DNA from: an uncultured Planctomycetales bacterium
GTDB taxonomy: Bacteria > Omnitrophota > Gorgyraeia > Gygaellales > Profunditerraquicolaceae
Assembly (NCBI GenBank): GCA_964645795.1
Contig: CAZYCL010000009.1
Span: 505-64,504, forward strand
Length of the DNA stretch: 64,000 nucleotides
Direction: 5' to 3'
A program made the position numbers and the translations under genes. The notes beneath the pieces were generated by a model. The model was given only the letters and a program-made list of their open reading frames with translations, searched no databases and was not told where the DNA came from. This document shows positions 1,311 through 33,304 of this stretch, piece after piece (positions within the stretch are counted from its first letter, which is position 1; each line of letters begins with the position of its first letter).

Positions 1311-1344
<34 letters not shown>

Positions 1345-2751: not shown

Positions 2752-2786
<35 letters not shown>

Positions 2787-4100: not shown

Positions 4101-4136
<36 letters not shown>

Positions 4137-5091: not shown

Positions 5092-5100
5092 TTTAATTTC

Positions 5101-7842: not shown

Positions 7843-8061
7843 CAGGTTTTGATTATGCAGTCCGAATGTCTATTTTCTAAAACATAGTGTTTAAAAAACG
7901 CAACAAGTAGGCATCATTTCCGCGTTCCTCTGTACTGTCCTGATTTATATAACCTCATGTTAATGCCAAAGTTATATTTATTCTCCAAATCCTGCTATTT
8001 TGGCATAAGAATTGCTATATAAAAATTGGGAGATAATATCCATAAGTAAAGGAGGGTTATA

Positions 8062-8856
8062 ATGAAGAGGATTTTTTGTCTATTCTTCCTCATGTGTTTA
8101 CTGATCTTATCTGCGAACAGCAGCGCTTTTGCGGTAGTTACCGGCAGCGGTTCGATGGAGTGGGACCTTGGTTTTACCGGCGATATAAGCTATGGCTGGG
8201 CTGCAAACTACTATGGAGGGATATCCTACGGATATCTTGACCATTACGGTTATCAATCTTATAACCATTACTATTTAGATGGGGATTACACGGGTTACGA
8301 TGCCGACGGCCCGAGTTGGATATCTGCGACCTGGGATCCTGCGACTGCCAACCAGCAGTTCAACTTTTCGGCTCAAAGCAATGATCCTAATCTGGTTGCC
8401 GAAACCTGGGTTGGTATGGGAGGACGAATTCTTAATATCGGACCATATGCGCAGCTTCCTGATTTTTCCTTTGATTATGATTTTTACGGGATCACTGATT
8501 CAGCAAACGACTCTTTGCAGTTTATGTTCCAGGGCGAGCTTCTCTATGTTGGGGGCGGAGGCGAGCATGTAGTTTATACGGATTACCAGGGTTCTCCTTA
8601 CGGGGAAAACTTCTTGAATTTCTATGTTAACGGGGCAGGCCAGGTTCTTGATGAAGAGGGAACGCGGACGTTCAGCGGTTATAGTACCCATGACGGCCAG
8701 CCTTACAACTGGTATTTTTATTTTGATTTCGGAGGAGGCGGAAGGGATTGGCCCAGCGGTCAGGCAAATAATGTTGTCCCCGAACCTGCAAGTTTATCGC
8801 TTTTGGGGTTAGGGTTGTTTGGGCTGGCATTCAGGAGGAAAAGAATTATTAAATAA
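8062..8856 (+). CDS. secreted G/Y/D-rich protein with C-terminal PEP-CTERM sorting signal
   Basis: Signal peptide. C terminus VPEPASLSLLGLGLFGLAFRRKR has a VPEP motif, a TM helix and a basic tail. Confidence 0.8.
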   Translation: MKRIFCLFFLMCLLILSANSSAFAVVTGSGSMEWDLGFTGDISYGWAANYYGGISYGYLDHYGYQSYNHYYLDGDYTGYDADGPSWISATWDPATANQQFNFSAQSNDPNLVAETWVGMGGRILNIGPYAQLPDFSFDYDFYGITDSANDSLQFMFQGELLYVGGGGEHVVYTDYQGSPYGENFLNFYVNGAGQVLDEEGTRTFSGYSTHDGQPYNWYFYFDFGGGGRDWPSGQANNVVPEPASLSLLGLGLFGLAFRRKRIIK

Positions 8857-8876
8857 AAATATAGTATAATATAAAT

Positions 8877-8914
8877 GGGGACGGTTCTCTAACGAGAACC
8901 GTCCCCATTTTTTT
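8877..8914 (+). terminator. rho-independent terminator
   Basis: GGGGACGGTTCTC-taac-GAGAACCGTCCCC followed by TTTTTTT. Confidence 0.85.
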
Positions 8915-9015
8915 GTCCTGCAGTTCCGCAAGGAATGAGGGGTTTTTGTGATTGACAGTTGTTCATCGCGGGAGTTACAATACTGCTATAAGATTAAAAC
9001 TTTGGTGTAACCTTA

Positions 9016-9399
9016 ATGACCGATATATCCTTTAGGCAGAAATTTGAAGCAAGGGGCAATAAGGCGTCGCTTCCCCCTGAGGAGCGGGAGTTCTTGGATT
9101 TTTGTGCTGCCCTGAGGGATTTTCATAAGCGCAACCCTTGTTATTTTAAGCCTTCCATCAGGGCATGCCCGGATAAGGCGCGCCTCGATCTTTTAGTCAT
9201 AGACGCCAGGCCGCTTAAGAAGATAGATTATGAAGAAGTCATAGATCCCAATTCCGAAGGGATGCTTACTTTTAGCTTTTGGAGAGCGGATACCGGTCAT
9301 TTTTTCCTGCGCGTTCACGGCCACGGAGATTCGGGAAGGGATGAGCTCTTCGGCCCGTTTAAGAAGGCAGGAAGGAAATTTGAGCTGGTAAAGATGTGA
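9016..9399 (+). CDS. hypothetical protein
   Basis: 127-aa ORF with no recognisable motifs. Confidence 0.45.
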   Translation: MTDISFRQKFEARGNKASLPPEEREFLDFCAALRDFHKRNPCYFKPSIRACPDKARLDLLVIDARPLKKIDYEEVIDPNSEGMLTFSFWRADTGHFFLRVHGHGDSGRDELFGPFKKAGRKFELVKM

Positions 9400-9745: not shown

Positions 9746-10123
9746 ATGTCAAAACGCAAACCTAAGAAAAAGAAGATCGATTGTGAGCGGTGTGCCACTC
9801 CTTCTGTCTGCTGCCATATGGGCGTATGGGTTGACCTGAATGAGGCAAAGAGGATACTGGAGTTGGGCATCAAGGGCGGCGATTTCTTCCATCTGGAGAA
9901 AAACGATGATTATCCCTCCGGATACCGGGTGGGCACAAGCATAGAGGATGAGTCTTGCTCTTTCCTTACCCGGGACGGCCTTTGTTCGATACACAAGATC
10001 GATTATGACCTCAAGCCCCTGCATTGCCGCGAATTCCCCTATGAGAACGGCAGGCTTTCTCCTTTCGCAGGGATATTATGCGAGACGGTCAAGGCAAGAC
10101 GCAAGAAGAAGCGGTCTTTGTAA
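9746..10123 (+). CDS. YkgJ/UPF0153-family putative zinc- or iron-chelating protein (CxxCxxCC)
   Basis: CERCATPSVCC matches the C-x2-C-x5-CC motif. More Cys residues lie downstream. Confidence 0.55.
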   Translation: MSKRKPKKKKIDCERCATPSVCCHMGVWVDLNEAKRILELGIKGGDFFHLEKNDDYPSGYRVGTSIEDESCSFLTRDGLCSIHKIDYDLKPLHCREFPYENGRLSPFAGILCETVKARRKKKRSL

Positions 10124-10125
10124 TC

Positions 10126-10386
10126 ATGGCAAAGCTAAAAGTGGATCTGCACGATATATTCAGCGACGGCAGGGCGATCGAGCATGAGCTGCAACGGGTG
10201 ATTAAGGAAGCTGTCGAGAAGAGGGTCGAGCTGGTTGAGATAGTTCCCGGAAAAGGGAGCGGCCAGCTTAAGAAAAGCGTGCTGCGGTTTTTAGAGCGGC
10301 CGCAGATAAAAAGCCTGTATCATCGTGTTGAGAAGGACGATAAGAATTTTGGAAGAATATTGGTCCACTTCAGGTTCCATGGATAG
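10126..10386 (+). CDS. Smr domain protein
   Basis: VDLHD..ELVEIVPGKGSGQLKKSVLRFL matches the Smr/MutS2 C-terminal domain, including the LDLHG-like and GKGTG-like motifs. Confidence 0.65.
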   Translation: MAKLKVDLHDIFSDGRAIEHELQRVIKEAVEKRVELVEIVPGKGSGQLKKSVLRFLERPQIKSLYHRVEKDDKNFGRILVHFRFHG

Positions 10387-10681
10387 CGCGCGTTATCTCG
10401 ATAGCCAGAAAGAGGCCCAGGCAGAACATGAGGCATTATGCCGCAGGTGCGGCTTATGCTGCGGTTTATATGATAATGATCCGTGCCGGCAGCTGGTCAA
10501 GACCGGTGACGGCAAGTATTCCTGCAGGGTTTATGAGCAAAGGCTGGGGGTCCAGTATACCGTTTCCGGCAAGCTATTTCACTGCGTGCCGATAAGGGAT
10601 TTCTTGAACGGCGAGCGTTCTTTCAACTGCGCCTATTCCTGCGCAGGGGCCTTAAGTTTGCCGTTGGGTTCTCGGGGGTAA
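10379..10681 (+). CDS. second YkgJ/UPF0153-family CxxCxxCC protein
   Basis: The motif CRRCGLCCGLY is present. The start overlaps the Smr stop (ATGGATAG). Confidence 0.5.
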   Translation: MDSARYLDSQKEAQAEHEALCRRCGLCCGLYDNDPCRQLVKTGDGKYSCRVYEQRLGVQYTVSGKLFHCVPIRDFLNGERSFNCAYSCAGALSLPLGSRG

Positions 10682-10685
10682 TCCG

Positions 10686-10832
10686 ATGAGGGGTTTTGGC
10701 AGGAGGCTGGCGCAGGAGATATTCGAGGGAAATTATTTTGACAAGTGGTGGTTTGTGCTGTTGGTTTCTGTCCTGCTGTTTGCTGTAAGCATTTTTTTCG
10801 TTACCATGGTGATTTCGGCGATAAGAAAATAA
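10686..10832 (+). CDS. possible small tail-anchored membrane protein (48 aa)
   Basis: ATG lies 5 nt after the preceding stop. The product has a hydrophobic C-terminal helix. The RBS is weak. Confidence 0.25.
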   Translation: MRGFGRRLAQEIFEGNYFDKWWFVLLVSVLLFAVSIFFVTMVISAIRK

Positions 10833-10876
10833 GCCGCAAGTTTGCCTGTCCGCAATGGCTAAAAAGGAGATGACCA

Positions 10877-11395
10877 ATGAGCGATAAGAAGGCAATGAAT
10901 CCCTATCTTGCCGGGGCTCTTACAGGGTTATTGGCGGTAGCCTCGGCATGGATCACGGGCAAGTTTTTCGGAGCGTCGACCACCTTTGTCCGGGCGGCAG
11001 GGTTCATCGAGAAGTTGTTTGCGCCCGAGAAGGTAGCCGGGATGGCGTATTTTATCAAGGAGGCCCCCAAGATAGATTGGCAGTGGATGTTCGTTTGCGG
11101 GATACTTGTCGGCGCGCTCATCTCGGCGCTGGCCTTCGGAGAGCTTCGGTTAAAATGGGTCCCGGATACTTGGGAGAAAAGGTTCGGAAAACAGGCGTTA
11201 AAAAGGGGGATCTTCGCATTTCTGGGAGGGTTCATCGCCATTATGGGGGCGCGCCTGGCTGACGGATGCCCCAGCGGCCATGGCCTGAGCGGCCTTATGC
11301 AGCTGGCCGTAAGCGGCTTTGTGGCCCTTTTCTTCTTCTTCGTAGGCGGAGTGCTTGTTGCCCATATCCTGTACAAGGAAGGGAGGTCCCGATGA
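10877..11395 (+). CDS. YeeE/YedE family membrane protein (sulfur-compound transporter half)
   Basis: Multi-TM protein. GxCxxG-type motif ADGCPSGHG. Confidence 0.7.
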   Translation: MSDKKAMNPYLAGALTGLLAVASAWITGKFFGASTTFVRAAGFIEKLFAPEKVAGMAYFIKEAPKIDWQWMFVCGILVGALISALAFGELRLKWVPDTWEKRFGKQALKRGIFAFLGGFIAIMGARLADGCPSGHGLSGLMQLAVSGFVALFFFFVGGVLVAHILYKEGRSR

Positions 11396-21036: not shown

Positions 21037-21148
21037 CTATTTCTTGAAATACTCCCTTATTATGGTATCCGCGATGTTTTGGGCCAGGAGGCGGTTGCCT
21101 TTCTCGGTGCAGTGGCCGAAGTCGCCGGCGAAGATGTCGGTAAAGTAT
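21037..21148. repeat. identical 112-nt block at the 3' ends of both TPR-SGNH paralogs (second copy at 22437-22548)
   Basis: TTCTTGAAATACTCCCTTATTATGGTATCCGCGATG...GGTAAAGTATGC is identical in both copies. Similarity falls to about 75% immediately beyond the block. Confidence 0.85.
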
Positions 21149-22440
21149 GCATTGTAACCGTCTTTGGACACCGCGTCCTTAAAGAGGCCTTCGTTGTCCA
21201 CGAAGATTATGTTTTTGCGTTCCTGCGGGCCAAAGATCATTTTCAGCGGCAAGAGGCTGCGCATAGGGTATTGTACGGCGATCAGCTTTATCCCGCGGCT
21301 ATCGAGCATGCTTTTAAGCCGGTGGTAGTTGCCGATAGTCATTGATTTATCGCCTTCAAGCTTCAGGCGGTCCAAGACATCCGTGTATTTAGTCATAAGC
21401 GCATAATCGCCATTTTTCCTGTAAATAGAAATCAAGTAAGCATAGGCTTTAGTTTCCTTTGGGTCCACGCCGATGGCGTCCAAAAAACATTTCTCGGCAA
21501 GGCCGGGCTTATTTTTGTGCAAATAGATCCTGCCAAGCCCCAGGAGCACGGGGATCTGATTGGGGTCGGCCTCCAGGCTCCTGATGAAGTATTTCTCGGC
21601 GGTATCGAGCTCTTCGGGCGCGTCAAAATAGATCCAGCCTAGCGCGCGGGCGGCTTCGCCATTACGGGGGTCTATACGCAACGCCTGCTTGAAGTATCTT
21701 TTTGCGTGCGCTTGATCTTCAAGCATGCAACAGCTCCAGGCAAGCCCCAGGTAAACAGGAATGGTGGGTTGCGTGCGCAAGGCTTTTTGGAATAGCTCGC
21801 GGGCCTTGGCGTATTCTTTTTGGTCCAAAAGCTGCCTGGCTCGCTCAGCGTATGAGGCAGGTTTTGCCTTGGGTCCCTCTGCGGCATACCCTTTCTTAGA
21901 AGGCAGGTTTTGACATTTAGTCAATGATCTTAGCTTGTGTTTTAGATGCAAGAGGATCAGCCCGGACAGCTTATATGTCTTGAGTTGTTTAAAGACATCT
22001 GCCGTCACCTTGCCGTATGAGCAATCATAAGGGATATGATCTCCGGAGTCGTTTGCGCCCATCATGCAGATGACCATATCCGGATGGTATTGGTTCAAGT
22101 TCTTTTCCATCTGGTCGATAATGAGCCACGTCTTAGCCCCTGCAAGCCCTTTGTCTATAACGCTGACCTTTATACCCGCAACCCCTTGTTCGAGTTGTTC
22201 TTTTAAGAACCCCGGATACTGGTCCCGGGTAGTGGATTCTCCGATGCACAGTATCACAAAGGAGTGTTTTTTTGAAAGCGCAATCCGGTTTTTTATCTCC
22301 TGCATCATAAGCATGGCGCCGCCTGCCAGGCGCAGGCCGGTTTCCAGGATAAGCAGGCAGATAAAGAGCCCGAAGAATACAAGGAGGATTTTCTGCGACA
22401 GGCTTGTTATTGGACTGTTGCTGCGCCTTGGCCGGGTCAT
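21037..22440 (-). CDS. membrane-anchored TPR-repeat protein with a split SGNH/GDSL-hydrolase fold (paralog 1)
   Basis: N-terminal TM helix. Block I LCIGESTT, block III MMGANDSG, about 7 TPR repeats inserted, then block V DFGHCTEKG at the C terminus. Confidence 0.65.
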   Translation of the reverse strand: MTRPRRSNSPITSLSQKILLVFFGLFICLLILETGLRLAGGAMLMMQEIKNRIALSKKHSFVILCIGESTTRDQYPGFLKEQLEQGVAGIKVSVIDKGLAGAKTWLIIDQMEKNLNQYHPDMVICMMGANDSGDHIPYDCSYGKVTADVFKQLKTYKLSGLILLHLKHKLRSLTKCQNLPSKKGYAAEGPKAKPASYAERARQLLDQKEYAKARELFQKALRTQPTIPVYLGLAWSCCMLEDQAHAKRYFKQALRIDPRNGEAARALGWIYFDAPEELDTAEKYFIRSLEADPNQIPVLLGLGRIYLHKNKPGLAEKCFLDAIGVDPKETKAYAYLISIYRKNGDYALMTKYTDVLDRLKLEGDKSMTIGNYHRLKSMLDSRGIKLIAVQYPMRSLLPLKMIFGPQERKNIIFVDNEGLFKDAVSKDGYNAYFTDIFAGDFGHCTEKGNRLLAQNIADTIIREYFKK

Positions 22441-24062
22441 TTCTTGAAATACTCCCTTATTATGGTATCCGCGATGTTTTGGGCCAGGAGGCGGTTGCCT
22501 TTCTCGGTGCAGTGGCCGAAGTCGCCGGCGAAGATGTCGGTAAAGTATGCCCCGTAGCCGTCTTTGGCCACGGCGTCCCTGAAGACTTTATCGTTATCCA
22601 CGAAAATTATGTTTTTGGTGTGTGACTCGAGGGTTTTCTTTAACGGCGCGATGTCGCGCATGGGATATTGTGCCGCAACCAGCATAATATTGCGGCCGGC
22701 AGTAATACTTTGCAGTTTGCGGTAATTTCTCACGGTCATCGGCACATATCCGGCTGTTCTTATGGCCTGCGCCTTCATCATATCGCCTAAGGCAAGCTCA
22801 GGGTCGCCGGTTTGACCATAGACGAACGATCTGGCAGCGAAGGGTATATCGCTGTCCGGCATTAACTCCATGAGCTTTCCGGAGCAATCCTCGGCTTTCG
22901 CCTTGTTGCCGGATTGCAGGTAGATCCATTGCAGGCAAAGATAGTAAAGGCTGCAGTCCGGTTTAAGCCTTATTGCCTTTTTGCAATACCTCTTGGCAGC
23001 GCTAAATTTCTTCTTTTCCCTGTATAACACGGCCAGATCGCCGTAAGCTACATCATTTGAGGGGTAATATTTAATAAGTTGCCTTAAACACCTTTCGCTT
23101 AAGCCGTGTTTACCCATATCGAAATAAACCCAGCTTAATCCCTGCAGGGCTGTTTCGTGCCTGGGATAAAGCTCTAAAAGCCGCTTGAAGGCCTTTTCGC
23201 AAAGCTCATAGTTTCTTGTCCGTTTATACAACCAGCATAATCCTAAATGGGTATTGGGATTACGGGGATTCAGCTCGATAGCTTTCTTGAAGCAACTTTG
23301 CGCCCGCCCGTAATCCGCCTTAGCCTTATAGATATTGCCCAGGCCTATGTATGCTTCGTCCGCTTCAATTGTGCCGGAGCAGGTATCTATGGCCTTGTTG
23401 AAGCAGGCTTCGGCTGCCCGGTATTGCTTCTTGGTGATGAAGCCCCAGCCTGACTCTACCAGGGCCTTGATGTCCTGCAGCCTCTCTGCCCGGGAAGCCT
23501 TCCGTGAACCCGGGTATTTGTTATTTAGTTGGGCGATCAGGCGGTTTTCGTTTAACTCTTCCAGTTTCTTTCTTAGATGCAGCCTGATCATCAGAGAAAG
23601 TTTGTAAGTTTTAAGGCTTTTGATAGCCGCAAGGAGCCCGTGTTTTGTCTGGCGCTGCCAGGGGATAAAGCCTTCCCTGTCATTTATGCCCATCATTGAC
23701 ACGATCATGGCGGGCCGGTATTGGTTTATCAGCGGTTCCAAACGCTCAATTATAAAGTCGGTTTTGACCGCCATAAGGCCCTTGTCGATTACGCTAAAAC
23801 TCAAGCCGAGACCGGCATCGTTGAGAAGCTTCTCCAGAAAAGCGGGGTAAGCATTTTGGGTGGTGGATTCGCCTACGCAGAGTATGGTAAAGCTATGCAG
23901 GCGCCCCATCCTGCGCCGGTTTTGCGCATCCTGGATGGAAATGAGGATGCTGCCGGCCAACCGCATTGATGCTTCGAGGACAATAAAGGACAGGATCAGT
24001 CCGAGGCCGATAAGGGCAAGCTTTTGACTTAATGGCGTGACGGCGCGCTTGGTTGATTTCAT
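22437..24062 (-). CDS. membrane-anchored TPR-repeat protein with a split SGNH/GDSL-hydrolase fold (paralog 2)
   Basis: Same architecture: LCVGESTT, MMGINDREG, a longer TPR array, then DFGHCTEKG. The C-terminal 37 aa are identical to paralog 1. Confidence 0.65.
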   Translation of the reverse strand: MKSTKRAVTPLSQKLALIGLGLILSFIVLEASMRLAGSILISIQDAQNRRRMGRLHSFTILCVGESTTQNAYPAFLEKLLNDAGLGLSFSVIDKGLMAVKTDFIIERLEPLINQYRPAMIVSMMGINDREGFIPWQRQTKHGLLAAIKSLKTYKLSLMIRLHLRKKLEELNENRLIAQLNNKYPGSRKASRAERLQDIKALVESGWGFITKKQYRAAEACFNKAIDTCSGTIEADEAYIGLGNIYKAKADYGRAQSCFKKAIELNPRNPNTHLGLCWLYKRTRNYELCEKAFKRLLELYPRHETALQGLSWVYFDMGKHGLSERCLRQLIKYYPSNDVAYGDLAVLYREKKKFSAAKRYCKKAIRLKPDCSLYYLCLQWIYLQSGNKAKAEDCSGKLMELMPDSDIPFAARSFVYGQTGDPELALGDMMKAQAIRTAGYVPMTVRNYRKLQSITAGRNIMLVAAQYPMRDIAPLKKTLESHTKNIIFVDNDKVFRDAVAKDGYGAYFTDIFAGDFGHCTEKGNRLLAQNIADTIIREYFKK

Positions 24063-24197
24063 ATAATCCCCATTATATATTAAAAGGCAGTTGATACAAA
24101 CTTATATTAGCATGATGCTTATTTTAAGATTATTGTTGTTTTAAGATGGTAAATAATATAGAATAAATCAATAATTTGTCGCCAAGGACAGCCAAAG

Positions 24198-25397
24198 GTG
24201 AGAAGCAAAAAGATAGTAATTACCGGTTTAGGCATACTTTCTTCATGCGGGATAGGCAGGGCTGCTTTTTATGACAACATTTTTTCCGGCCGCTGCGGGA
24301 TAGGGCCGGTATCATTATTTGACGTCTCGCAGCTTAAGGTAAGATCTGCCGCCCAGATCAAGGATTTCAATCCTCAACAGTTCCTGGGCCCTAAGGGGTT
24401 GCGCAATCTTGACCGCAGCACCAAGCTTATCATGTCTGCTGCCAGGCTTTGCCTGGATGATGGCGGCCTGGCAATCGGGCAGGAGAATTCGCGCAGTGTC
24501 GGGATATCCGTAGGTACGACCCTGGGCAGCCTGGCGAGCATCATGGAGTTTGATACCGAAGGTATAAGGGAAGGGCCGAATTTCGTAAATCCGGCACTGT
24601 TTCCCAATACCGTGATCAACTCGCCTGCCAGTCAGGTCTCGATCAAATTCAATATCAAGGGCTTTAATGCCACCATCTCAAACGGTTTTACCGCCAGCCT
24701 TGACGCAATAGATTACGGGCGGGACATGCTGTGTTTCGGTAAGGCCAGGTATGTGCTTGCCGGAGGGGTAGAGGAGCTATGCCTTCAGACTTTCATGGGT
24801 TTTTATAAATCCGGTTGTCTGGCGCCGGTTCCGGGCGGCGAAGGCCTGGTGCTGGGAGAGGGTGCTGGTTTAGTCCTGATGGAAGAGATGGAAACAGCCC
24901 TGGAGAGAAAGGCGCGCATATTCGCCCGGGTCAGCGGATTCGGCGCGGCGTTTGACTCTTGCGGGATAAACAGGTATAATCCTTCTTGCGCCGGTTTAGC
25001 CGCTGCCATGCGCTCGGCGATAGAGGATGCGGGATTGGGTTTGAGCGATATCGACCTTATATGCTCTGGCGCCAACTTTAATCCTGACGGCGATGCCATG
25101 GAGGCCCGGGCCATAAAAGAGGTCTTTGGGGGCGATTTTGATAAACCCGCGATAAGCTGCGTTAAATCCATGACCGGCGAATGTTTTAGCGCCTCCGGGA
25201 TTATCCAGTTGGCGGCTGCGCTTGCTGCTATAGAGAGGAATGAACTCTTTCCTTCGGTTAACATGAAAGACAGCCGGCTCAACAATGGGTTCAATCTTAT
25301 AATTGATAAAGCTGTTACCCGGGCCGTCAATAATGTTCTGATAAATAACTTCGGCCCAACCGGCTGTAATTCAAGTTTGATAGTATCGCGCTTGTAG
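24198..25397 (+). CDS. beta-ketoacyl synthase homolog with all three catalytic residues replaced (KS-like or chain-length-factor-like), GTG start
   Basis: Full KS thiolase fold. Active-site Cys is Phe (ISNGFTAS versus TACTSG), His303 is Asn (SGANFNPDGD versus NAHGTSTP) and His340 is Glu (KSMTGECF versus KSMTGHLLG). Confidence 0.75.
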   Translation: MRSKKIVITGLGILSSCGIGRAAFYDNIFSGRCGIGPVSLFDVSQLKVRSAAQIKDFNPQQFLGPKGLRNLDRSTKLIMSAARLCLDDGGLAIGQENSRSVGISVGTTLGSLASIMEFDTEGIREGPNFVNPALFPNTVINSPASQVSIKFNIKGFNATISNGFTASLDAIDYGRDMLCFGKARYVLAGGVEELCLQTFMGFYKSGCLAPVPGGEGLVLGEGAGLVLMEEMETALERKARIFARVSGFGAAFDSCGINRYNPSCAGLAAAMRSAIEDAGLGLSDIDLICSGANFNPDGDAMEARAIKEVFGGDFDKPAISCVKSMTGECFSASGIIQLAAALAAIERNELFPSVNMKDSRLNNGFNLIIDKAVTRAVNNVLINNFGPTGCNSSLIVSRL

Positions 25398-25460
25398 GAT
25401 ATGTAGATATATGTCAATATATGTAAATATAAGTTAATTAAGGTTGATTAACATACACAT

Positions 25461-26207
25461 ATGTCAGATAATAAGGTTGCTATAGTTACCGGCGCCAGCC
25501 GCGGTATAGGTAGGGCAATAGCCTTGCGTTTAGCAAAAGCAGGCAATGACATTGTTTTTACCTATCTGAAAAACGCCGATTCCGCCGATGCCCTGGCGGA
25601 TGAGATCGGAAAACTCGGCAGGAAGGCGCTGGCCCTGCAGGTTGACGTGCGCGATTTTGATAAGGCAAAAGAGCTGATTGAAAGGACCAAAGAGGCCTTT
25701 GGCAGGCTGGATATATTGGTCAATAACGCAGGAGTCATTCGCGACAAGGCCCTTATGATGATGAGCCGTGAGGATTGGCTGGACGTTGTGGACACAAACC
25801 TTGGAGGGGCCTTCAATCTTACCAGAAACGCCATCGTAACTTTCCTGAAGCAGAAGAGCGGCGTCATTGTTAATGTCAGTTCCGTCAGCGGGGTCGCGGG
25901 CCTGGCGCGCCAGACCAATTACTGTGCCTCCAAAGCCGGGATCATCGGTTTTACCAAAGCCCTGGCAAAAGAAGTCGCCGCTTATAATATCCGGGTCAAT
26001 GCCGTTGCCCCGGGATTTATCGTCACCGATATGATCGCGGAACTTAAACCGGAGTACAGGGAATCCATGATCAGGAATATACCTCTGGGCAGGTTCGGGA
26101 CTCCGGATGAGGTGGCCAGGGTAGTGGATTTCCTGGTAAGCGAGAGGTCTGATTATATCACCGGCCAGGTGATAGTAGTTGACGGCGGCATGTTTATGTA
26201 TAAATAA
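25461..26207 (+). CDS. 3-oxoacyl-ACP reductase paralog (SDR, FabG-like)
   Basis: TGASRGIGRAIA cofactor-binding motif. NNAG block. Catalytic YCASKAG (YxxxK). Confidence 0.85.
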   Translation: MSDNKVAIVTGASRGIGRAIALRLAKAGNDIVFTYLKNADSADALADEIGKLGRKALALQVDVRDFDKAKELIERTKEAFGRLDILVNNAGVIRDKALMMMSREDWLDVVDTNLGGAFNLTRNAIVTFLKQKSGVIVNVSSVSGVAGLARQTNYCASKAGIIGFTKALAKEVAAYNIRVNAVAPGFIVTDMIAELKPEYRESMIRNIPLGRFGTPDEVARVVDFLVSERSDYITGQVIVVDGGMFMYK

Positions 26208-26223
26208 AGAGGAGGAACTTCAA

Positions 26224-26469
26224 ATGCAGGACCTGGAAAATGAAATACGGGGTATCATTGCCGAGATAATAGAAAGAGAGCCTTCCGAGGTGACCCTTGA
26301 TGCCAAATTCTTCGAAGAGCTTGGGGTAGATTCCATGATGGCCCTGGAGATCATGGCGGCAATCGAGAAGAAGTATAAGATAAGCATACCCGAGGAGAAG
26401 CTCGCCCAGCTTACTAATCTCAGGCAGACCTTGGCAGTCGCCCAGGAGTACCTATCCAAAAATAAATGA
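26224..26469 (+). CDS. dedicated acyl carrier protein (second ACP in the window)
   Basis: 81 aa. LGVDSMMALE phosphopantetheine-attachment Ser motif. AGAGGAGG RBS. Confidence 0.8.
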   Translation: MQDLENEIRGIIAEIIEREPSEVTLDAKFFEELGVDSMMALEIMAAIEKKYKISIPEEKLAQLTNLRQTLAVAQEYLSKNK

Positions 26470-26906
26470 TTGATATAGATAAGATTCAGCAGATACTGCC
26501 TCACCGTTATCCGTTCTTGCTCATCGATAGGGTCGTCGAGATCGATCCCGGCAAAAAGATCGTGGCATTAAAGAACGTCAGTTTCAATGAAGGTTTTTTC
26601 TCCGGGCACTTCCCGGATAAGCCCGTAATGCCCGGCGTCCTGATCATTGAGGCCATGGCTCAGGCCTCGATCCTCCTTTTTTACCCTGAAAAAGAAAAAT
26701 CTCCCGGACAGGGGCTGGTGTATTATCTGGGCGCAGTGAAGGTAAGGTTTAAGAGGCCGGTTATAGCAGGAGATCAGCTTATGATCACGGTAGAGCCCGT
26801 CAAAATGCTCTCCGGCATAGGTATAGTCAATGCCGTGGCCACCGTAGGCGACAAGGAGGTCGCTAGCGGAGAAATCAGCTTCAGCGCTAAACCCAATGCA
26901 AAATAG
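26466..26906 (+). CDS. 3-hydroxyacyl-ACP dehydratase (FabZ/FabA hotdog family) paralog
   Basis: LPHRYPFLLIDRV..GHFP..PVMPGVLIIEAMAQ matches the FabZ signature. It is translationally coupled to the ACP and the downstream KS. Confidence 0.85.
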   Translation: MIDIDKIQQILPHRYPFLLIDRVVEIDPGKKIVALKNVSFNEGFFSGHFPDKPVMPGVLIIEAMAQASILLFYPEKEKSPGQGLVYYLGAVKVRFKRPVIAGDQLMITVEPVKMLSGIGIVNAVATVGDKEVASGEISFSAKPNAK

Positions 26907-28110
26907 CAGAGTTGTGATTACCGGGTTAGGGGTCATTTCTTCCATAGGTATAGGCAAGGATAAATTTTGGGACGCCCTTATCCAGGGCAGGTCCGGGATC
27001 AGCCGCATAACGGGTTTTGATACCTCCTGCTATCAAAATCATAATGCCGGCCAGGTCCGGGATTTTGAACCTTTGGATTTCATCTCAAAAGAAAGAGCCG
27101 CTACCATGGGCCGCGCTTCTTGTCTGGGCATAGCTGCGGCAAGACTGGCGGCCAGCGATGCCCGCCTGCGGCCGGAGTATTATCAGCAGCCGGATATCGG
27201 TATAGTGATGGGTACGACCATGGGGGAGTCCCAGGTAATAGAGGGGCTTAACGACGCCTGGGTAAGAGATGGCCACCAGGCGATTGATGCAGATTGGATC
27301 CCGCGCTACCCATGTAACGTTATTGCCGCAAATATCGCCATGGAGTTTGGGGCCAAAGGACCGAACTTTACCATACCTTGCGCCTGCGCAGCGGGTAATT
27401 ATGCCATAGGTTATGCATCCGATCTTATAAGGACCGGCAGGGCCAGGATGATGCTCGCCGGAGGCTCAGACGCTTTTTCGCGGCTGGCCTTCATGGGATT
27501 CAACCGGCTATTCGCCGTAGCCGGCGAGATCTGCCAGCCTTTTGACAAGAACCGTAAAGGCATGATGGTAGGTGAAGGGGCCGCTGTCTTAGTGCTGGAA
27601 TCGTTGGATGAGGCCTTGTCCCGCGAAGCCCCGATATACGCGGAAGTCGCAGGTTACGGCCTCAGCTGTGATGCGCATCACATGACTGCGCCTTTTGCAG
27701 AGGGTATTGCCCAGGCGATCAAAAGCTCTATTGATGCCTGCGCAGTAAAGCCGGAAGAAGTAGATTATATAAGCGCTCACGGGACCGGAACTGCTTCCAA
27801 CGATAAAGAGGAGTGTCTGGCGATAAAGAAGGTTTTCGGCGAGAGGAGAGTTGCAGCCAGCTCCATAAAATCCATGCTCGGCCACACTATGGGGGCTGCC
27901 TCGGCAATAGAGGCGCTTGCCTGCTGCCTGGTTATAACCGGTGGCGTGATCCCGCCGACCATAAATTACAAGACGCCGGATCCCGAATGCGACATTGACT
28001 GTGTGCCTAACACAGCCCGGAAAGCCGACGTGCGCGTTGCCATAAATAACGCTTCTGCCTTCGGCGGCAACAACTCCTGCCTGGTGCTTAAAAAGTATCC
28101 CCCTAATTAA
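26896..28110 (+). CDS. beta-ketoacyl-ACP synthase (KAS I/II-like) with an intact catalytic triad
   Basis: Cys in CACAAGNYAIG. His in SAHGTGTASND. His in KSMLGHTMGAAS. Confidence 0.85.
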   Translation: MQNSRVVITGLGVISSIGIGKDKFWDALIQGRSGISRITGFDTSCYQNHNAGQVRDFEPLDFISKERAATMGRASCLGIAAARLAASDARLRPEYYQQPDIGIVMGTTMGESQVIEGLNDAWVRDGHQAIDADWIPRYPCNVIAANIAMEFGAKGPNFTIPCACAAGNYAIGYASDLIRTGRARMMLAGGSDAFSRLAFMGFNRLFAVAGEICQPFDKNRKGMMVGEGAAVLVLESLDEALSREAPIYAEVAGYGLSCDAHHMTAPFAEGIAQAIKSSIDACAVKPEEVDYISAHGTGTASNDKEECLAIKKVFGERRVAASSIKSMLGHTMGAASAIEALACCLVITGGVIPPTINYKTPDPECDIDCVPNTARKADVRVAINNASAFGGNNSCLVLKKYPPN

Positions 28111-28149
28111 AATTCCCATTTCTATAATTTGTGATATAATACTTTCTTC

Positions 28150-28986
28150 ATGGAAACTCCCATCAGCAAGAAATACAATTTCTATCTTAACGGCACCAAC
28201 GGCAAGGCTGTCCTGCTCATCCACGGCATAACCGGCACTCCCAGCGAAATGCACTACTTTGGGAAAGGGCTCAATAAGGCAGGCTTCTCCGTCCTTTGCA
28301 ATACCCTGCCCAGGCACTGCGAAAGCCTGGGGGAGCTTAAAAAAGTGACCTGGCAGGAGATATACGCTTCCTGCGTAAGGGACTTCCAAGAGCTCTTAAA
28401 AATGAACAAAAAAGTGTTTGTTGCGGGGCTATCTATGGGGGCGCTTATGTGCCTGCATATTGCCAGCGAGTTCCAAAGCGAGGTAACCGGGATCATCGCC
28501 CTGGCCCCTACTTTCTTCTATGACGGCTGGGCGCTGCACAAAGGTAAGTTTCTCATGGAGCTGTTCTGGCATATACCTTTTGTGCGTAATACCGTGAATA
28601 TACGGGAAGGCTGGCCCTACGGTTTAAAAAACGAAAATCTGCGTTCCGGTATCGAGAGGTTCTATAAGAATGCCAGGGCCAGCGAGTTCGACGACAAGGT
28701 CCTGCTTTTCGGCAGCCCCTTTTTCCCCCTTGCCTGCCTTTATCAGCATAAGCTCTTCGTTAAAGTGGTGAACAAGAACCTGTCCGCCGTCAAGAACCCC
28801 ATACTCGTAATTCACGCCAAAGAAGATGATATGACCAGCCCCAGGAATGCCGAGTATCTGTACCGCGCAGTCTCATCCGCCAGAAAATCCCTGGTATTAC
28901 TGGAAGACTCTTACCACATGGTCACTATTGATAAAGAAAAAAAGAAGGTAGTCGAAGATTCGGTTAATTTCTTAAGCTCCCTATAA
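28150..28986 (+). CDS. alpha/beta-hydrolase (carboxylesterase or lysophospholipase-like)
   Basis: HG oxyanion motif LLIHGITG. Nucleophile elbow GLSMGA (GxSxG). C-terminal Asp and His candidates. Confidence 0.7.
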   Translation: METPISKKYNFYLNGTNGKAVLLIHGITGTPSEMHYFGKGLNKAGFSVLCNTLPRHCESLGELKKVTWQEIYASCVRDFQELLKMNKKVFVAGLSMGALMCLHIASEFQSEVTGIIALAPTFFYDGWALHKGKFLMELFWHIPFVRNTVNIREGWPYGLKNENLRSGIERFYKNARASEFDDKVLLFGSPFFPLACLYQHKLFVKVVNKNLSAVKNPILVIHAKEDDMTSPRNAEYLYRAVSSARKSLVLLEDSYHMVTIDKEKKKVVEDSVNFLSSL

Positions 28987-28993
28987 TACGAAA

Positions 28994-30499
28994 ATGAAAT
29001 ACGATGCCGCGGTAATCGGTGCCGGAATGGCGGGTGTCATTTCTGCGCTTAAGCTTTCCGCCTCCGGGGCCAAGGTCGTCCTTTTTGAAAAACTCCCCGT
29101 TCCCGGGGGTTTTGCGACCAGCTTTAAGAGGAGGGGGTTTTTGTTTGAGTCGGCTATCCATTGCGTTGACTCGCTAGGCGAGAACGGCGAGATGCGCCTT
29201 TTCTTCGAGGCCCATGGCATAGACCAGAAAGTCGATTTTATCAAGCTAAAGGATTTCAGCAGGATCATCTATCCTGAACACGATTTTGTCGCTGATTTCA
29301 GCAAAGATAATTTCTTGCAGTACCTCAAGAGCAGCTTCTCGGCAGAGGAGCCAGGCATCCGAAGGCTTTTTGAAAAGTTCGACTCCTTCTACCGCCAGTT
29401 CGACAGCTATTGCGTATCCCGCATGCCGCAGTGGCTGAAGTTGGCCGGGGGCCTGTTTTTTTACCCCATGATCGCAAAAGTTTCTTTAGCCACCGCAGAC
29501 CAGCTCATATCGGCTTATATTAAAGATGCAAAATTAAAGGCGCTGATAGGTGAGATCTGGAGGTATATGGGGCTGGCGCCTTCCAGGCTGTCGGCCTTTT
29601 ATTTTCTGCTGGTTTTGCGGGGGTTTTTTTATGAGCCTACCTGTTACGTAAAAGGCGGGTTCGGCAGGTTGTTCTCTGCCATAACGGATAAGATAAAGGA
29701 AAACGGCGGTACTGTCCTGTTCAACACCGAGGTAAGATCGATTAAAACTGCTGCCGGCAGGCGCGTAAGAGGGTTGGTCGCTTCAGGAGGGAAGGAATAC
29801 GAGGCACCTTGCGTTATATCCAACGCCAGCGCCCCCGACACCCTTTTAAGGCTTTTGGATAATCCCAAGGCCTCAGGCGCCGACAGGATAAAGCTCTCGG
29901 GACTTGAGAAGTCGGTCTCTGCTTTCCAGGTGTATCTGGGCCTTAGGCTTCCGGCCAAGGGCATGGGTATGGACCACGCCATGATCTCCGTAAATACCTG
30001 CTATGATCATGACCTGAACTACAAGTATTCTGTTTTCGGAGATTATGAGAATTGCCCGTTTACCATGGTCGATCATGCCCAGATCGACCCGTCATTGGTA
30101 GAGCCGGGAAAGGGGAGCCTGATGGTCATGGCCCTGGATAATTACTCGAACTGGGCCGGCCTTGCAGTCCAGGAGTATAAGAAGAAGAAGGCTGCGGTCG
30201 CGGCAAAGCTTATCAGCCGGGCAGAGCGATATCTGCCGGGCCTAAGCGGCTGCATTGAGGTCATGGAGGCAGCTACGCCGCTTACTATGGCCAGATACGG
30301 CTCTTCTCCTGAAGGGGCTATATATGGGTTTGCTCAGACCCCGGACCAGGCCGGGATAAGCAGGTTGGCTCAAAAGACCGCCGTAAAGGGCTTGTTTTTG
30401 ACCGGTGCCTGGACCAGGCCCGGAGGAGGGGTGCACGGCTGCTTTGTGTCCGGGATAGATGCCGCTGAAATGGCCATGAAACATTTGGGCAGGAGATAG
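28994..30499 (+). CDS. FAD/NAD(P)-binding oxidoreductase of the phytoene-desaturase (CrtI) amine-oxidase superfamily
   Basis: N-terminal DAAVIGAGMAGVISALKL..FEKLPVPGG dinucleotide-binding fold. About 500 aa, typical of CrtI-like enzymes. Confidence 0.7.
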   Translation: MKYDAAVIGAGMAGVISALKLSASGAKVVLFEKLPVPGGFATSFKRRGFLFESAIHCVDSLGENGEMRLFFEAHGIDQKVDFIKLKDFSRIIYPEHDFVADFSKDNFLQYLKSSFSAEEPGIRRLFEKFDSFYRQFDSYCVSRMPQWLKLAGGLFFYPMIAKVSLATADQLISAYIKDAKLKALIGEIWRYMGLAPSRLSAFYFLLVLRGFFYEPTCYVKGGFGRLFSAITDKIKENGGTVLFNTEVRSIKTAAGRRVRGLVASGGKEYEAPCVISNASAPDTLLRLLDNPKASGADRIKLSGLEKSVSAFQVYLGLRLPAKGMGMDHAMISVNTCYDHDLNYKYSVFGDYENCPFTMVDHAQIDPSLVEPGKGSLMVMALDNYSNWAGLAVQEYKKKKAAVAAKLISRAERYLPGLSGCIEVMEAATPLTMARYGSSPEGAIYGFAQTPDQAGISRLAQKTAVKGLFLTGAWTRPGGGVHGCFVSGIDAAEMAMKHLGRR

Positions 30500-30504: not shown

Positions 30505-31161
30505 TTGAAAAGACAGCATAAGCTTGCCAGGGATACGGCCAGGATCACTTCAGGCAGCCTTAAGGGCAGGATTTTAAGGTTGCCTTCCGGCATAAGGCCG
30601 ACGCAGGAAAAGGTCAGGAAGGCCTTTTTTGACATAATCGGCGATATCGCGGGGCTTTCTTTCCTGGAGCTGTTTGCCGGTTCCGGAGCAGTCGGCTTTG
30701 AGGCTGTCTCCAGAGGGGTAAAGGAGCTGGTTTTGGTGGAGAATAACAGGGATTGCCAGTTGGCGATCTCCAAGAATATAGAGAATCTGAAGATTGTCGC
30801 TTGCGAATCCTATCCTCACCGCGTTGAACAGGCTCTGGAAGCGATAAAGAAAAGGGGCAGGAGCTTTGATGTAATCTTCCTGGATCCCCCCTATAACAAG
30901 GCGGAGTTTTACTCGGGCCGCGATGTTCCGGATAGCGGGAAAAACCAGGGTTGCGAGGCCGGAAAAGAGGGGTCCCTGGCAAAAAAAACCTTGCAAATGC
31001 TGGGGGCTTATGATATATTAGCGCCCAATGGTTTGATAGCCGTGCAGCATTTTAAGAAGGATGAACTCCCAAGCTCATGCGGGGAGTTCATTTTGGTTAA
31101 AGAGGCCGGTTACGGGGATACGGTGCTTTCGTTCTACAGGAAGCCCTCCCCGAAAGCTTAA
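30505..31161 (+). CDS. rsmD: 16S rRNA (guanine966-N2)-methyltransferase RsmD (TTG start, N terminus uncertain)
   Basis: LDLFAGSGALGFEAVSRG-type AdoMet motif. DPPY substrate-binding motif. Conserved adjacency to coaD. Confidence 0.8.
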   Translation: MKRQHKLARDTARITSGSLKGRILRLPSGIRPTQEKVRKAFFDIIGDIAGLSFLELFAGSGAVGFEAVSRGVKELVLVENNRDCQLAISKNIENLKIVACESYPHRVEQALEAIKKRGRSFDVIFLDPPYNKAEFYSGRDVPDSGKNQGCEAGKEGSLAKKTLQMLGAYDILAPNGLIAVQHFKKDELPSSCGEFILVKEAGYGDTVLSFYRKPSPKA

Positions 31162-31171
31162 CGCTTTAAGG

Positions 31172-31657
31172 ATGCAAAAGACCGCTATATATCCAGGCAC
31201 GTTTGATCCTGTCACCTATGGGCATATTGATCTCATAGAGAGGGCGCAGGAGATATTTGGTCAGATAATAGTGGCGGTCGCGCATAACCCTCACAAGAAG
31301 CCTCTCTTCGGCCTGAAAGAGCGCGTAAAGCTGCTGGAGCTTGCCACCGCGCGCCTTAAAGGCGTGGAAGTCGTCTCCTTTAACGGATTGGTCGTGGATT
31401 TTGCCCGCAGACGCAAAGCTCAGGTGCTGATCAGAGGGTTACGCATGATCTCTGATTTTGAATACGAGTTCCAGATGGCCCTGACCAACAGGAAGATCGC
31501 CCCCGATATCGAAACGATCTTTTTAATGCCTCACGAATCTTACAGCTATATCTCTTCAAAGCTGCTTAAGGAGGCAGCGTCTCTGGGCGCCGATATATCC
31601 AGCTTTGTGCCGGATTTTGTATCCAGGGCGATTGTCAGCAAACTCGGCAAGGCCTGA
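31172..31657 (+). CDS. coaD: phosphopantetheine adenylyltransferase
   Basis: AIYPGTFDPVTYGHIDLI matches the T/HxGH nucleotidyltransferase motif. About 160 aa. Confidence 0.9.
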   Translation: MQKTAIYPGTFDPVTYGHIDLIERAQEIFGQIIVAVAHNPHKKPLFGLKERVKLLELATARLKGVEVVSFNGLVVDFARRRKAQVLIRGLRMISDFEYEFQMALTNRKIAPDIETIFLMPHESYSYISSKLLKEAASLGADISSFVPDFVSRAIVSKLGKA

Positions 31658-32099: not shown

Positions 32100-32303
32100 G
32101 TGGCACTACCAAAGAAAAGACATTCTAAGACGCGCGGCAGGAAGCGTCGTACGCACTGGAAGCTGGCGACCGCAAATCTTGCCCCCTGCCCCCAATGTAA
32201 GCAGCCCAAGATCAGCCATCAGGTCTGCAGGGTGTGCGGTTATTACAACGGCAAGCCGGTTATAGAGATAAAAGTCAAAGAGAAAAAGAAGAAGAAGGGT
32301 TGA
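32100..32303 (+). CDS. rpmF: 50S ribosomal protein L32 (GTG start)
   Basis: ALPKKRHSKTRGRKRR start. CxxC..CxxC zinc ribbon. Confidence 0.85.
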   Translation: MALPKKRHSKTRGRKRRTHWKLATANLAPCPQCKQPKISHQVCRVCGYYNGKPVIEIKVKEKKKKKG

Positions 32304-32311
32304 TCGGCACT

Positions 32312-33304
32312 ATGACAAAGATTGTAGTGGATGCCATGGGAGGGGATTACGCGCCCGGTGTGGTCATAGACGGGGCAGTAGCCGCGGTCAGGGAGTACGA
32401 TGTTGAAGTGATCCTTGTCGGCAAGGAAGACGCCATCAAAAACCTCCTTCATAAGGTAAAATATACCGGCAACAGGATACACATCCATCATGCCCCCGAT
32501 GTTATAGGTATGTCCGAGTCTGCGGCTACCAGCGTTAGGCGCAAAAGACAGTCCTCCATAGTAGTCGGCGTCAACCTGGTAAAAGAAGGAAAAGGCCAGG
32601 CGTTCTTTAGCGCCGGCAATACCGGTGCCGTGGTCTGCGCGGCTACCCTGGGACTGGGGCTTCTGCCGGGAGTGGAGAGGCCCGGTATAGCCATTGTCAC
32701 TCCTACCGTAAAAGGCATATCCCTGGTCATAGATGTCGGCGCCAACATTGACCCTAAGCCCAACCAGCTTCTGCAATACGGGATCATGGCGGATGCATAC
32801 TTTCGTCACATACTTAACCGGCCGAATCCCACCGTCGGAATTCTTAATATCGGAGAAGAGGAGGGTAAAGGAACCGATTTCATAAAAGAGGCGCGCGACC
32901 TGCTGCAGAAATCAGCCCTTAATTTTATAGGCAATGTCGAAGGTAAAGAGTTTTTCTCCGGTAAATGCGATATCATTATCTGTGACGGGTTTGTGGGCAA
33001 TATCGCCCTGAAGGTTTCCGAAAGCGCGGCAGAAGCGATGCAGGTATTCTTAAGGCGTCATCTGCTCAGCAATATCCTTGGCAAGATCGGGGTATTGTTT
33101 TTGGCGCCCAACTTCAGCCGTTTTAAGAAAGAGCTTGATTACGCCGAGTACGGCGGCGCTCCTCTTCTTGGCGTCAACGGAGTGGCCATTATCGGGCACG
33201 GCAGGTCGAATGTCAAGGCGATCAAGAACGCAATAAGGGTGGCCAAGGAAGAGGTTGAGCGCAAGTTCAACGAGAAGATACTGGAGGCGATAAAGGCGCG
33301 TTAA
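32312..33304 (+). CDS. plsX: phosphate acyltransferase PlsX
   Basis: KIVVDAMGGDYAP start. Full-length PlsX fold. Position upstream of fabH. Confidence 0.9.
   Translation: MTKIVVDAMGGDYAPGVVIDGAVAAVREYDVEVILVGKEDAIKNLLHKVKYTGNRIHIHHAPDVIGMSESAATSVRRKRQSSIVVGVNLVKEGKGQAFFSAGNTGAVVCAATLGLGLLPGVERPGIAIVTPTVKGISLVIDVGANIDPKPNQLLQYGIMADAYFRHILNRPNPTVGILNIGEEEGKGTDFIKEARDLLQKSALNFIGNVEGKEFFSGKCDIIICDGFVGNIALKVSESAAEAMQVFLRRHLLSNILGKIGVLFLAPNFSRFKKELDYAEYGGAPLLGVNGVAIIGHGRSNVKAIKNAIRVAKEEVERKFNEKILEAIKAR

Follow-up and report, generated by a model that had tools for sequence, protein, structure and literature searches.

The 64-kb window studied here, i.e., the whole stretch of contig CAZYCL010000009.1 (assembly GCA_964645795.1) that was analyzed, originates from an uncultured member of the phylum Omnitrophota and harbors a gene cassette for the assembly of acyl chains. 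The cassette comprises seven open reading frames (ORFs), all located co-directionally on the plus strand between positions 24198 and 30499 (coordinates refer to positions in the whole stretch). They encode a β-ketoacyl synthase (KS) homolog lacking the catalytic triad (dKS), a ketoreductase (KR), an acyl carrier protein (ACP), a dehydratase (DH), an active KS, an alpha/beta hydrolase, and a CrtI-fold flavoprotein (Table 1). The ORF coordinates were confirmed, and the gaps between successive genes amount to 63, 16, −4, −11, 39, and 7 nt, i.e., the genes are compactly arranged, partly overlap, and show an operon-like packing. Furthermore, an intact housekeeping rpmF-plsX-fabHDG-acpP-fabF operon is located 1.6 kb 3' of the cassette. 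The original prediction, made from the letters of the sequence, had described seven closely coupled genes forming a paralogous, dedicated ACP-dependent chain-building cassette next to an intact housekeeping fab operon. This description was upheld in all three respects, a separate and full housekeeping set being present downstream.

Table 1. Coordinates of the cassette genes and of the putative upstream promoter.
Feature	Position	Strand	Basis of the assignment
Putative promoter, two overlapping sigma-70-like matches in an AT-rich intergenic region	24053..24108	+	Consensus scan; weak evidence
dKS, triad-less KS homolog, 399 aa	24198..25397	+	Pfam ketoacyl-synt N and C domains
KR, FabG-like 3-oxoacyl-ACP reductase	25461..26207	+	TIGR01830, S...YxxxK motif
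ACP, amxACP-type, 81 aa	26224..26469	+	PP-binding domain, DSM serine
DH, FabZ-type 3-hydroxyacyl-ACP dehydratase	26466..26906	+	TIGR01750
Active KS, amxFabF2 counterpart	26896..28110	+	PRK07314, Cys-His-His
Alpha/beta hydrolase, monoacylglycerol-lipase/Est30 type	28150..28986	+	Hydrolase_4/Abhydrolase_1, GLSMG nucleophile motif
CrtI-fold FAD flavoprotein	28994..30499	+	Amino_oxidase/DAO

The closest known counterpart of the cassette was found in anammox bacteria. Putative ladderane clusters of Kuenenia stuttgartiensis hold triad-substituted FabF paralogs beside phytoene-desaturase-like flavoproteins (PDH) and radical S-adenosylmethionine (radical-SAM) enzymes, the substituted positions being Val/Asn/Lys/Glu in Kuste3606 and Phe/Asn/Lys/Glu in Kuste2805 (Rattray et al. 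2009, PMC2649909). The supplement to Javidpour et al. 2016 (PMC4790861) served as the source of the Kuenenia query sequences, which were partial, with approximately 128 amino acids, for most genes. For each of five Cluster I proteins (kuste3603–3607), the best match was a different protein of the cassette, namely the ACP for the ACP kuste3603 (41% identity), the DH for the FabZ kuste3604 (48%), the KS for the FabF kuste3605 (41%), the dKS for the non-canonical FabF kuste3606 (43%), and the flavoprotein for the PDH kuste3607 (31%, compared to 24% for CrtI of Pantoea). Housekeeping genes matched housekeeping genes: the FabF kustd1386 and the ACP kustd1387 shared 44% and 68% identity, respectively, with the housekeeping FabF and AcpP of the window. 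A second Cluster I locus, from Brocadia (L086, CP064969.1), encodes ACP, FabZ, FabF2, FabFmut, PDH, and a B12 radical-SAM enzyme. Over the full length, identities to the Brocadia proteins were 54–57% for the KS (57% for B. fulgida amxFabF2), 40–41% for the dKS (amxFabFmut), 48% for the DH (amxFabZ), 41% for the ACP (amxACP), and 28% for the PDH. In addition, the top PDB matches of dKS, KS, and ACP are chains of the amxFabF heterodimer–ACP complex (9s5h/9s5i) or anammox ACPs.

The triad columns of the dKS were read from an alignment with E. coli FabF, the second KS of the cassette, the housekeeping FabF of the window, and 120 dKS homologs. Both the second KS and the housekeeping FabF retain Cys-His-His; in the dKS, the substitutions C163F, H303G, and H340E were found together with a retained Lys335. 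The predicted loss of the triad was confirmed by this alignment, although the proposed Phe/Asn/Glu pattern was correct only for Phe and Glu, since the first His is replaced by Gly and the Asn, a conserved residue, lies two residues after it. Phe at the Cys position and Glu at the second His position were each present in 119 out of the 120 homologs, Lys335 in all of them, and the first His position varied between Ala, Gly, and Asn. Since the non-catalytic replacements are so strongly conserved, the role of the dKS appears to be selected and non-condensing. Its best PDB match was 9s5h_C (308 bits), followed by 9s5h_B (206 bits) and several FabF structures (approximately 194 bits), and its score for the FabF equivalog TIGR03150 (275 bits) was far below the cut-off of 494 bits. 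The tunnel residues Phe135/Thr138/Val139 were invariant in 17 out of 17 Omnitrophota dKS sequences, the one of the window included. Moreover, the dKS of the window lacks the 12-aa CPFDKRRNG loop (around residues 205–215), and similar or larger loop deletions with differing boundaries, but intact ORFs, were detected in five other loci (L010, L034, L045, L062, and L076). Part of the region around the first-His motif is likewise gone from some of the loop-deleted sequences. Catalytic-loop deletions within an intact ORF, as seen in the sublineage of the window, would fit a purely structural subunit. The view that the dKS is a chain-length-factor (CLF)-like partner of the intact KS, already put forward in the original prediction, is supported by analogy with the anammox orthologs of Brocadia and Kuenenia, which form such a heterodimer biochemically and crystallographically (bioRxiv 10.64898/2026.05.19.726425; PDB 9s5h/9s5i).

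The active KS exceeded the cut-off of the subfamily model PRK07314 (399.9 vs. 387 bits) and remained below that of TIGR03150 (419 bits). Its PDB ranking was led by 9s5h_B (496 bits), the ishigamide KS Iga11 (359 bits) and B. subtilis FabF (319 bits) ranking behind, and it is 39% identical to the window's own FabF. The tunnel and gate residues Ala164, Cys165, Phe203, His298, His335, Met337, and Phe394 are conserved. In a neighbor-joining tree of 39 sequences with 100 bootstraps, the Omnitrophota dKS and amxFabFmut proteins were monophyletic (100/100), the active KSs grouped with amxFabF2 (79/100), Iga11 joined that KS clade (100/100), and the whole KS/dKS set was separated from housekeeping FabF (100/100). 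The tree supports orthology but, because its taxon sampling is small, does not settle it. It was reported that amxFabF2 and amxFabFmut are each inactive alone and co-purify as a heterodimer, which decarboxylates malonyl-amxACP, yields acetoacetyl-ACP, and reacts fastest with a C8 probe, the chain-length preference being shaped by Phe135 and Val139 of amxFabFmut together with the Phe394 gate of amxFabF2 (bioRxiv 10.64898/2026.05.19.726425).

The ACP gene most likely starts with the ATG at position 26224 (81 amino acids) and not with the TTG at position 26179, because a GAGGAGG ribosome-binding site precedes the former and an independent assembly called the same start. In line with the private ACP proposed earlier, the serine attachment site is present. 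The three best PDB matches of this protein are the anammox ACPs 7qv0_D, 7auf_A, and 9s5i_E (59–65 bits), all others reaching at most 41 bits; it shares only 35% identity with the window's own AcpP and scored below the cut-off of every ACP model, the AcpP equivalog among them (52 vs. 70 bits). The KR, 49% identical to the housekeeping FabG of the window, scored above the TIGR01830 cut-off (315.5 vs. 297.75 bits), as did the DH for TIGR01750 (176.4 vs. 155.15 bits). For amxFabZ, it was described that Ile69 replaces the canonical Gly, that a hydrophobic residue occupies position 115, and that the enzyme is active up to approximately C8, and only on amxACP-bound substrates (PMC10139942). The DH of the cassette likewise features Ile69 and Met115 and has no Arg/Lys at positions 115–117, whereas canonical FabZ proteins carry Gly/Ala and Lys/Arg there.

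Five features of Cluster I were thus recovered in the cassette, and the sixth, the cobalamin radical-SAM enzyme, was not. In both systems, the five homologous genes form one co-directional cluster with a dead/active KS pair whose dead subunit keeps Lys335 and Glu340 and whose tunnel residues agree, an amxACP-type private ACP, an Ile69 FabZ, and a CrtI-fold flavoprotein downstream of the KS genes. Anammox genomes, like the window, also possess a separate housekeeping plsX-fabHD-acpP-fabF operon. However, the cassette lacks the radical-SAM gene and additionally contains the FabG-like KR and the lipase-like hydrolase. The gene order is dKS-KR-ACP-DH-KS compared to ACP-FabZ-FabF2-FabFmut in anammox bacteria, the Cys position of the dead KS is occupied by Phe and not by Val/Thr, and the PFDKRRNG loop is missing from the dKS of the window. 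Finally, the hosts differ, since anammox bacteria make ladderanes, whereas none are known from Omnitrophota. In view of the one-to-one correspondence of five genes, the earlier statement that the cassette matches none of the known loci did not hold, the more so as antiSMASH 'ladderane' clusters were previously reported, in passing, in Omnitrophota metagenome-assembled genomes (MAGs) (PMC9902471); our literature search retrieved nothing more specific on them than this report. Whether the synteny is already characterized has a divided answer: the homologous parts were characterized individually, but no pathway product was established. The myxobacterial elb ether-lipid cluster was also considered as a relative and rejected, ElbB being a HAD-type phosphohydrolase and the cluster being built around the multidomain ElbD.

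To evaluate the distribution of the dKS family, one genome per GTDB species was scanned, and taxonomy was taken from the best 80 loci. In total, at least 306 species genomes contained a confirmed locus. Of the best 80, essentially all were of Omnitrophota origin, among them that of Ca. Velamenicoccus archaeovorus LiM, whose genome is complete. All named dKS homologs at 46–60% identity stem from Candidatus Omnitrophota MAGs. Several records (L015, L017, L023, L025, L027, and others) are titled 'uncultured Planctomycetia/Planctomycetales' and two 'Thermodesulfovibrionales'; since their cassettes are as close to that of the window as the Omnitrophota-labeled ones, outdated or wrong labels or mis-binning are suggested. 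For 83 loci, ORFs were labeled by BLAST against the window proteins, and three architectures were distinguished. The window type (A, approximately 12 loci) is dKS-KR-ACP-DH-KS-hydrolase-flavoprotein, usually located between recG and rsmD-coaD-yceD-plsX. Architecture B (approximately 20 loci, including Velamenicoccus) features dKS-KR-ACP-(DH)-KS; behind the KS, there is an NAD_binding_4 acyl reductase, a second PDH-like flavoprotein, or both, and also a histidine kinase. Upstream of it, genes for a malate-dehydrogenase-like protein, an Lpd-like protein, an LplA/B-type lipoyl/octanoyl transferase, a lipoyl-domain protein (76–90 amino acids), and an HTH_17 regulator were found. Architecture C (approximately 22 of the 83 loci, e.g., L001, L008, and L009, with the dKS at approximately 10001–11240) is the most frequent form; it consists of dKS-KR-DH only and is embedded among housekeeping genes, e.g., those of the riboflavin operon. 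Across the loci, the core lies next to plsX/fab, rib, or leu genes, and in other lineages opposite plsX-fabH-fabD, and a release enzyme (the hydrolase or the NAD_binding_4 reductase) together with a PDH-like flavoprotein recurs downstream in many of them. Ile69 was present in the DH of 34 out of 41 loci carrying ACP and KS, and in type C loci residue 69 is Cys, Ala, or Ile. A variant without KR or DH occurs in L085 (8001–15133), where the order is dKS-ACP-KS-NAD_binding_4 reductase-GMC oxidoreductase-nitroreductase-amine-oxidase-type flavoprotein, and where the dKS has Tyr at the Cys position.

Triad-less KS proteins were also found beyond this phylum. A representative search of the whole library showed the family to be large and diverse and revealed fused KS-CLF proteins in Firmicutes. 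P0242, P0243, P0257, and approximately 50 other representatives are fusions of approximately 800–830 amino acids, consisting of an N-terminal KS with Cys-His-His and a C-terminal triad-less KS-like domain. Organism names were available for two out of ten clusters looked up; the named members belong to Moorella sp. and Clostridium fungisolvens and bear the annotation chain length factor. Such fused proteins are single-chain versions of the KS/CLF pair. When the homolog search was seeded with amxFabFmut of Brocadia, the best 120 matches were all from anammox bacteria.

The hydrolase has thermostable monoacylglycerol lipases, LipS, and Est30 as its best PDB matches, and not type II thioesterases. 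It is co-conserved with the cassette in approximately 12 related loci (61–70% identity) and may act as an off-loading or transfer enzyme. The flavoprotein scored 151.6 bits against TIGR02734 (cut-off 238.1 bits), and its best curated families, carotenoid isomerase and crtI_fam, were both far below their cut-offs. Its AlphaFold2 (AF2) model reached a predicted local distance difference test (pLDDT) value of 90.8, and the top Foldseek hits were 4rep (template modeling (TM) score 0.80), followed by 4dgk and 5mog (CrtI and plant phytoene desaturase, PDS). At least 120 Omnitrophota clusters contain relatives above 50% identity. The CrtI-family label given in the original prediction is thus appropriate at the level of the fold, with an FAD Rossmann motif and the overall architecture being shared. 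As a functional label, however, it is not supported by the TIGR02734 score or by the anammox homologs kuste3336 and kuste3607, which fail to complement CrtI in the lycopene pathway in vivo (PMC4790861). Identity to members of the CrtI/phytoene desaturase family is 18–24%, and the flavoprotein gene adjoins a fatty-acid-type assembly line instead of carotenoid genes, none of which were found in the 64-kb window.

Likewise, neither an enoyl reductase (ER) nor a second FabZ nor a B12 radical-SAM enzyme was found in the window. A search with E. coli FabI over 1.36 Mb of loci yielded the KR as the sole match (approximately 25% identity). No second FabZ was detected in the window or in the 83 loci, which means little, because only 10 kb of flanking sequence was covered per locus. 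The B12 radical-SAM queries kuste3608 and kuste2803 gave no tblastn match in the window, and a homolog adjoining the cassette was absent from 82 out of the 83 loci. The only locus with an anammox-like arrangement is L042, an Omnitrophota MAG contig (JAQUAH010000043.1), in which a B12 radical-SAM gene (7996–9288) lies directly upstream of dKS-ACP-KS. The encoded protein contains B12-binding and Radical_SAM domains and shares 29–30% identity over approximately 390–435 amino acids with kuste3608 and the Brocadia enzyme; a second copy is located at 3382–4764 on the minus strand. Ammonia-lyase, adenylation, export, and glycosyltransferase genes were also not found with the cassette; except for adenylation, these absences had been noted in the original prediction.

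Taken together, these results indicate that the cassette is probably the counterpart, in Omnitrophota, of the anammox Cluster I (ladderane-type) module for specialized fatty-acid/polyketide synthesis. By homology with the anammox orthologs, the KS and the dKS would form a heterodimer of KS and CLF, which would decarboxylate malonyl groups on the private ACP for self-priming and then elongate the chain. Each β-keto intermediate would be reduced by the FabG-like KR and dehydrated by the Ile69 FabZ, as family membership and signature residues suggest. Chains of approximately C6–C8 may be favored, as measured with probes for amxFabZ and the amxFabF heterodimer and as the conserved tunnel residues would allow here. 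Since the cassette encodes no ER, the chain would stay unsaturated or be reduced in trans. The flavoprotein might then desaturate, isomerize, or saturate it, and the lipase-like hydrolase might release or transfer the product, whereas in type B lineages the acyl reductase would off-load it. Ladderane ring formation is not expected, because the cobalamin radical-SAM enzyme is absent. The results suggest a specialized acyl chain, perhaps a membrane or envelope lipid constituent, as the product; the phylum-wide conservation speaks for such a constituent rather than for an accessory pigment. The pigment or polyene product considered in the original prediction was pure conjecture, and a role in core lipids is more in keeping with the very wide conservation of the core in a streamlined phylum.

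Several observations weigh against this interpretation. Heterodimerization, chain length, and product are all carried over by homology from anammox bacteria, where the link of Cluster I to any product is itself unproven. Approximately 22 of the 83 loci have neither an ACP nor an active KS within 10 kb of the dKS, and since no KS is encoded nearby, the dKS of these type C loci must pair with a distant KS or act otherwise. The net charge of the helix-loop-helix 110–140 and of the helix 196–206, used as a proxy for the published electrostatic asymmetry, fails to separate even the Brocadia pair and is therefore uninformative. The overall score of the DH is similar for canonical FabZ and amxFabZ, the FabZ equivalog cut-off is passed, and the DH may be the sole FabZ of the genome. 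Finally, the identity of the flavoprotein to kuste3607, kuste3336, and the Brocadia PDH is modest (28–31% over approximately 330–500 amino acids), CrtI of Pantoea reaching 24%.

A rather unlikely alternative is that the cassette represents a highly reducing type II polyketide synthase (PKS) of the ishigamide or aryl-polyene (APE) kind. KS/CLF, KR, and DH would then iterate without enoyl reduction, the CrtI-like enzyme would isomerize or desaturate, and the hydrolase would release a conjugated polyene acid serving as a pigment or signaling lipid. The ishigamide proteins Iga11/Iga12 (6kxd–6kxf) and ApeO/ApeC indeed share with the cassette a KS with an inactive partner, discrete KR, DH, and ACP, and the lack of an ER; among solved structures, only amxFabF2 is closer to the KS than Iga11, which also groups with the KS clade, and the carotenoid-desaturase fold of the flavoprotein would suit long polyene substrates. 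However, the dead subunit is FabF-like and not a canonical CLF, and starter-unit, amide-forming, and export genes are missing, as are the ammonia-lyase, adenylation, and glycosyltransferase genes. Membership in the aryl-polyene, flexirubin, or cispentacin families was rejected by scores below the respective cut-offs (KS, PRK09185, 253 vs. 407 bits; KS, AmcF, 218 vs. 325 bits; KR, FlxB, 267 vs. 340 bits), in agreement with the predicted difference in gene content from aryl-polyene loci. Moreover, the flavoprotein or a distant ER could reduce the chain in trans, and the occurrence of the core in so many species genomes within housekeeping contexts (plsX/fab, rib, and leu) would be unusual for an accessory pigment. 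Alternatively, the cassette could be assigned to the primary fatty acid synthesis (FAS) of Omnitrophota, in which DH and KR would be the working FabZ and FabG and the dKS would modulate FabF-type elongation, e.g., for chain-length control of lipid A or phospholipid acyl chains. The folds and the chemistry are those of canonical FAS II, KR and DH score above the equivalog cut-offs of FabG and FabZ, the KS exceeds that of the PRK07314 subfamily, no other FabZ was detected in the window or the 83 loci (a result of limited meaning given the short flanks), the minimal dKS-KR-DH is the commonest architecture, and the cassette lies beside, or elsewhere opposite, plsX-fabH-fabD. We nevertheless consider this assignment unlikely, since a separate full fabH-fabD-fabG-acpP-fabF set is present in the window just downstream. 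In contrast to canonical FAS II with its homodimeric FabF, KS and dKS score below TIGR03150 and the divergent ACP below all ACP models. The Ile69 signature of the DH also indicates a restricted chain length, amxFabZ being inactive on canonical ACP.

The preference of the anammox enzymes for approximately C8 also raises the idea of a short-chain synthase supplying octanoyl-ACP for protein lipoylation, similar to mitochondrial FAS II. In approximately 18 loci of another sublineage (e.g., L067 6347–9943, L068 7258–9924, and L085 4388–7991), Lpd-like, LplA/B-type, and lipoyl-domain genes lie immediately upstream of the cassette, and an Lpd-like gene follows the radical-SAM gene of the Brocadia Cluster I (L086 12405–13839). 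However, the sublineage of the window has recG and TPR genes upstream and no such neighborhood, octanoyl-ACP would require an ER, which is not encoded, and neither a release hydrolase or acyl reductase nor a CrtI-like enzyme would be needed. Since, moreover, no lipA was seen and common descent alone may explain an adjacency conserved within one sublineage, a role in lipoylation appears very unlikely. The least probable reading, to which we attach hardly any weight, is that the cassette makes ladderanes or other cyclobutane lipids in Omnitrophota. The homology to five Cluster I genes and the radical-SAM gene directly upstream of dKS-ACP-KS in L042 speak for it; however, ladderanes were reported only from anammox bacteria (bioRxiv 10.64898/2026.05.19.726425), and the radical-SAM gene is missing from the window and from the cassette surroundings in 82 out of 83 loci.

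Regarding the surroundings of the cassette, the downstream genes are arranged in the order rsmD, coaD, yceD, rpmF, plsX, fabH, fabD, fabG, acpP, and fabF, the last one ending at position 37546. The rpmF gene (L32, 67 amino acids), too short for the ORF length filter, is located at 32100–32303 between yceD and plsX and overlaps the listed start of the plsX ORF (32234–33304), for which reason the plsX start is probably near 32312. Similarly, the true start of coaD is probably later, without an overlap with rsmD, because the CoaD match begins at residue 41 of ORF 31061–31657. Other genes of the window encode leucine, arginine, and lysine biosynthesis and further housekeeping functions. On the minus strand, between recG and the cassette (21037–24062), two paralogous proteins with an N-terminal SGNH/GDSL/DUF459-like lipase domain and TPR repeats are encoded, which have no counterpart in related loci, where recG adjoins the dKS gene. 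Furthermore, the 23S rRNA gene of the window (811–4722) is split by two group I introns (2791–3454 and 4075–4371), the first of which carries an ORF for a LAGLIDADG homing endonuclease (2951–3445); the gene is flanked by two tRNAs (233–388) and a 5S rRNA gene (4977–5093).

Ladderane biosynthesis is a long-standing open problem, and a main argument brought forward for Cluster I is its description as "conserved and encountered exclusively" in organisms that produce ladderanes (PMC10139942; bioRxiv 10.64898/2026.05.19.726425). Cluster I itself has been known since 2009, its ACP, FabZ, and KS pair are structurally characterized, and antiSMASH calls in Omnitrophota exist. New are the gene-by-gene correspondence, the signature residues, the three architectures, the breadth within Omnitrophota, and the lack of the radical-SAM gene in nearly all loci. 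Our results weaken the exclusivity argument, because the KS/CLF pair, the amxACP-type ACP, the Ile69 FabZ, and the PDH-like flavoprotein occur jointly in Omnitrophota, in nearly all cases with no radical-SAM gene alongside. The part specific to ladderanes would, by these results, be the radical-SAM enzyme. A CLF operating in a pathway of the fatty-acid type, for which the first case was reported in 2026, would accordingly be widespread. The findings also suggest a generic precursor as the product of the shared core. The loci of the uncultured Omnitrophota can be viewed as natural "minus-cyclase" variants that contribute a KR and release enzymes of their own, and their product would reveal what this core makes. 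A more far-reaching proposal, which we regard as quite unlikely at present, is that the Cluster I core is an ancient, phylum-wide lipid pathway of Omnitrophota, making the same uncyclized short or unsaturated precursor that anammox bacteria feed to the B12 radical-SAM enzyme, so that ladderane chemistry would reside in the radical-SAM step only. If true, rare Omnitrophota of the L042 type would make cyclized or radical-modified lipids outside the anammox lineage.

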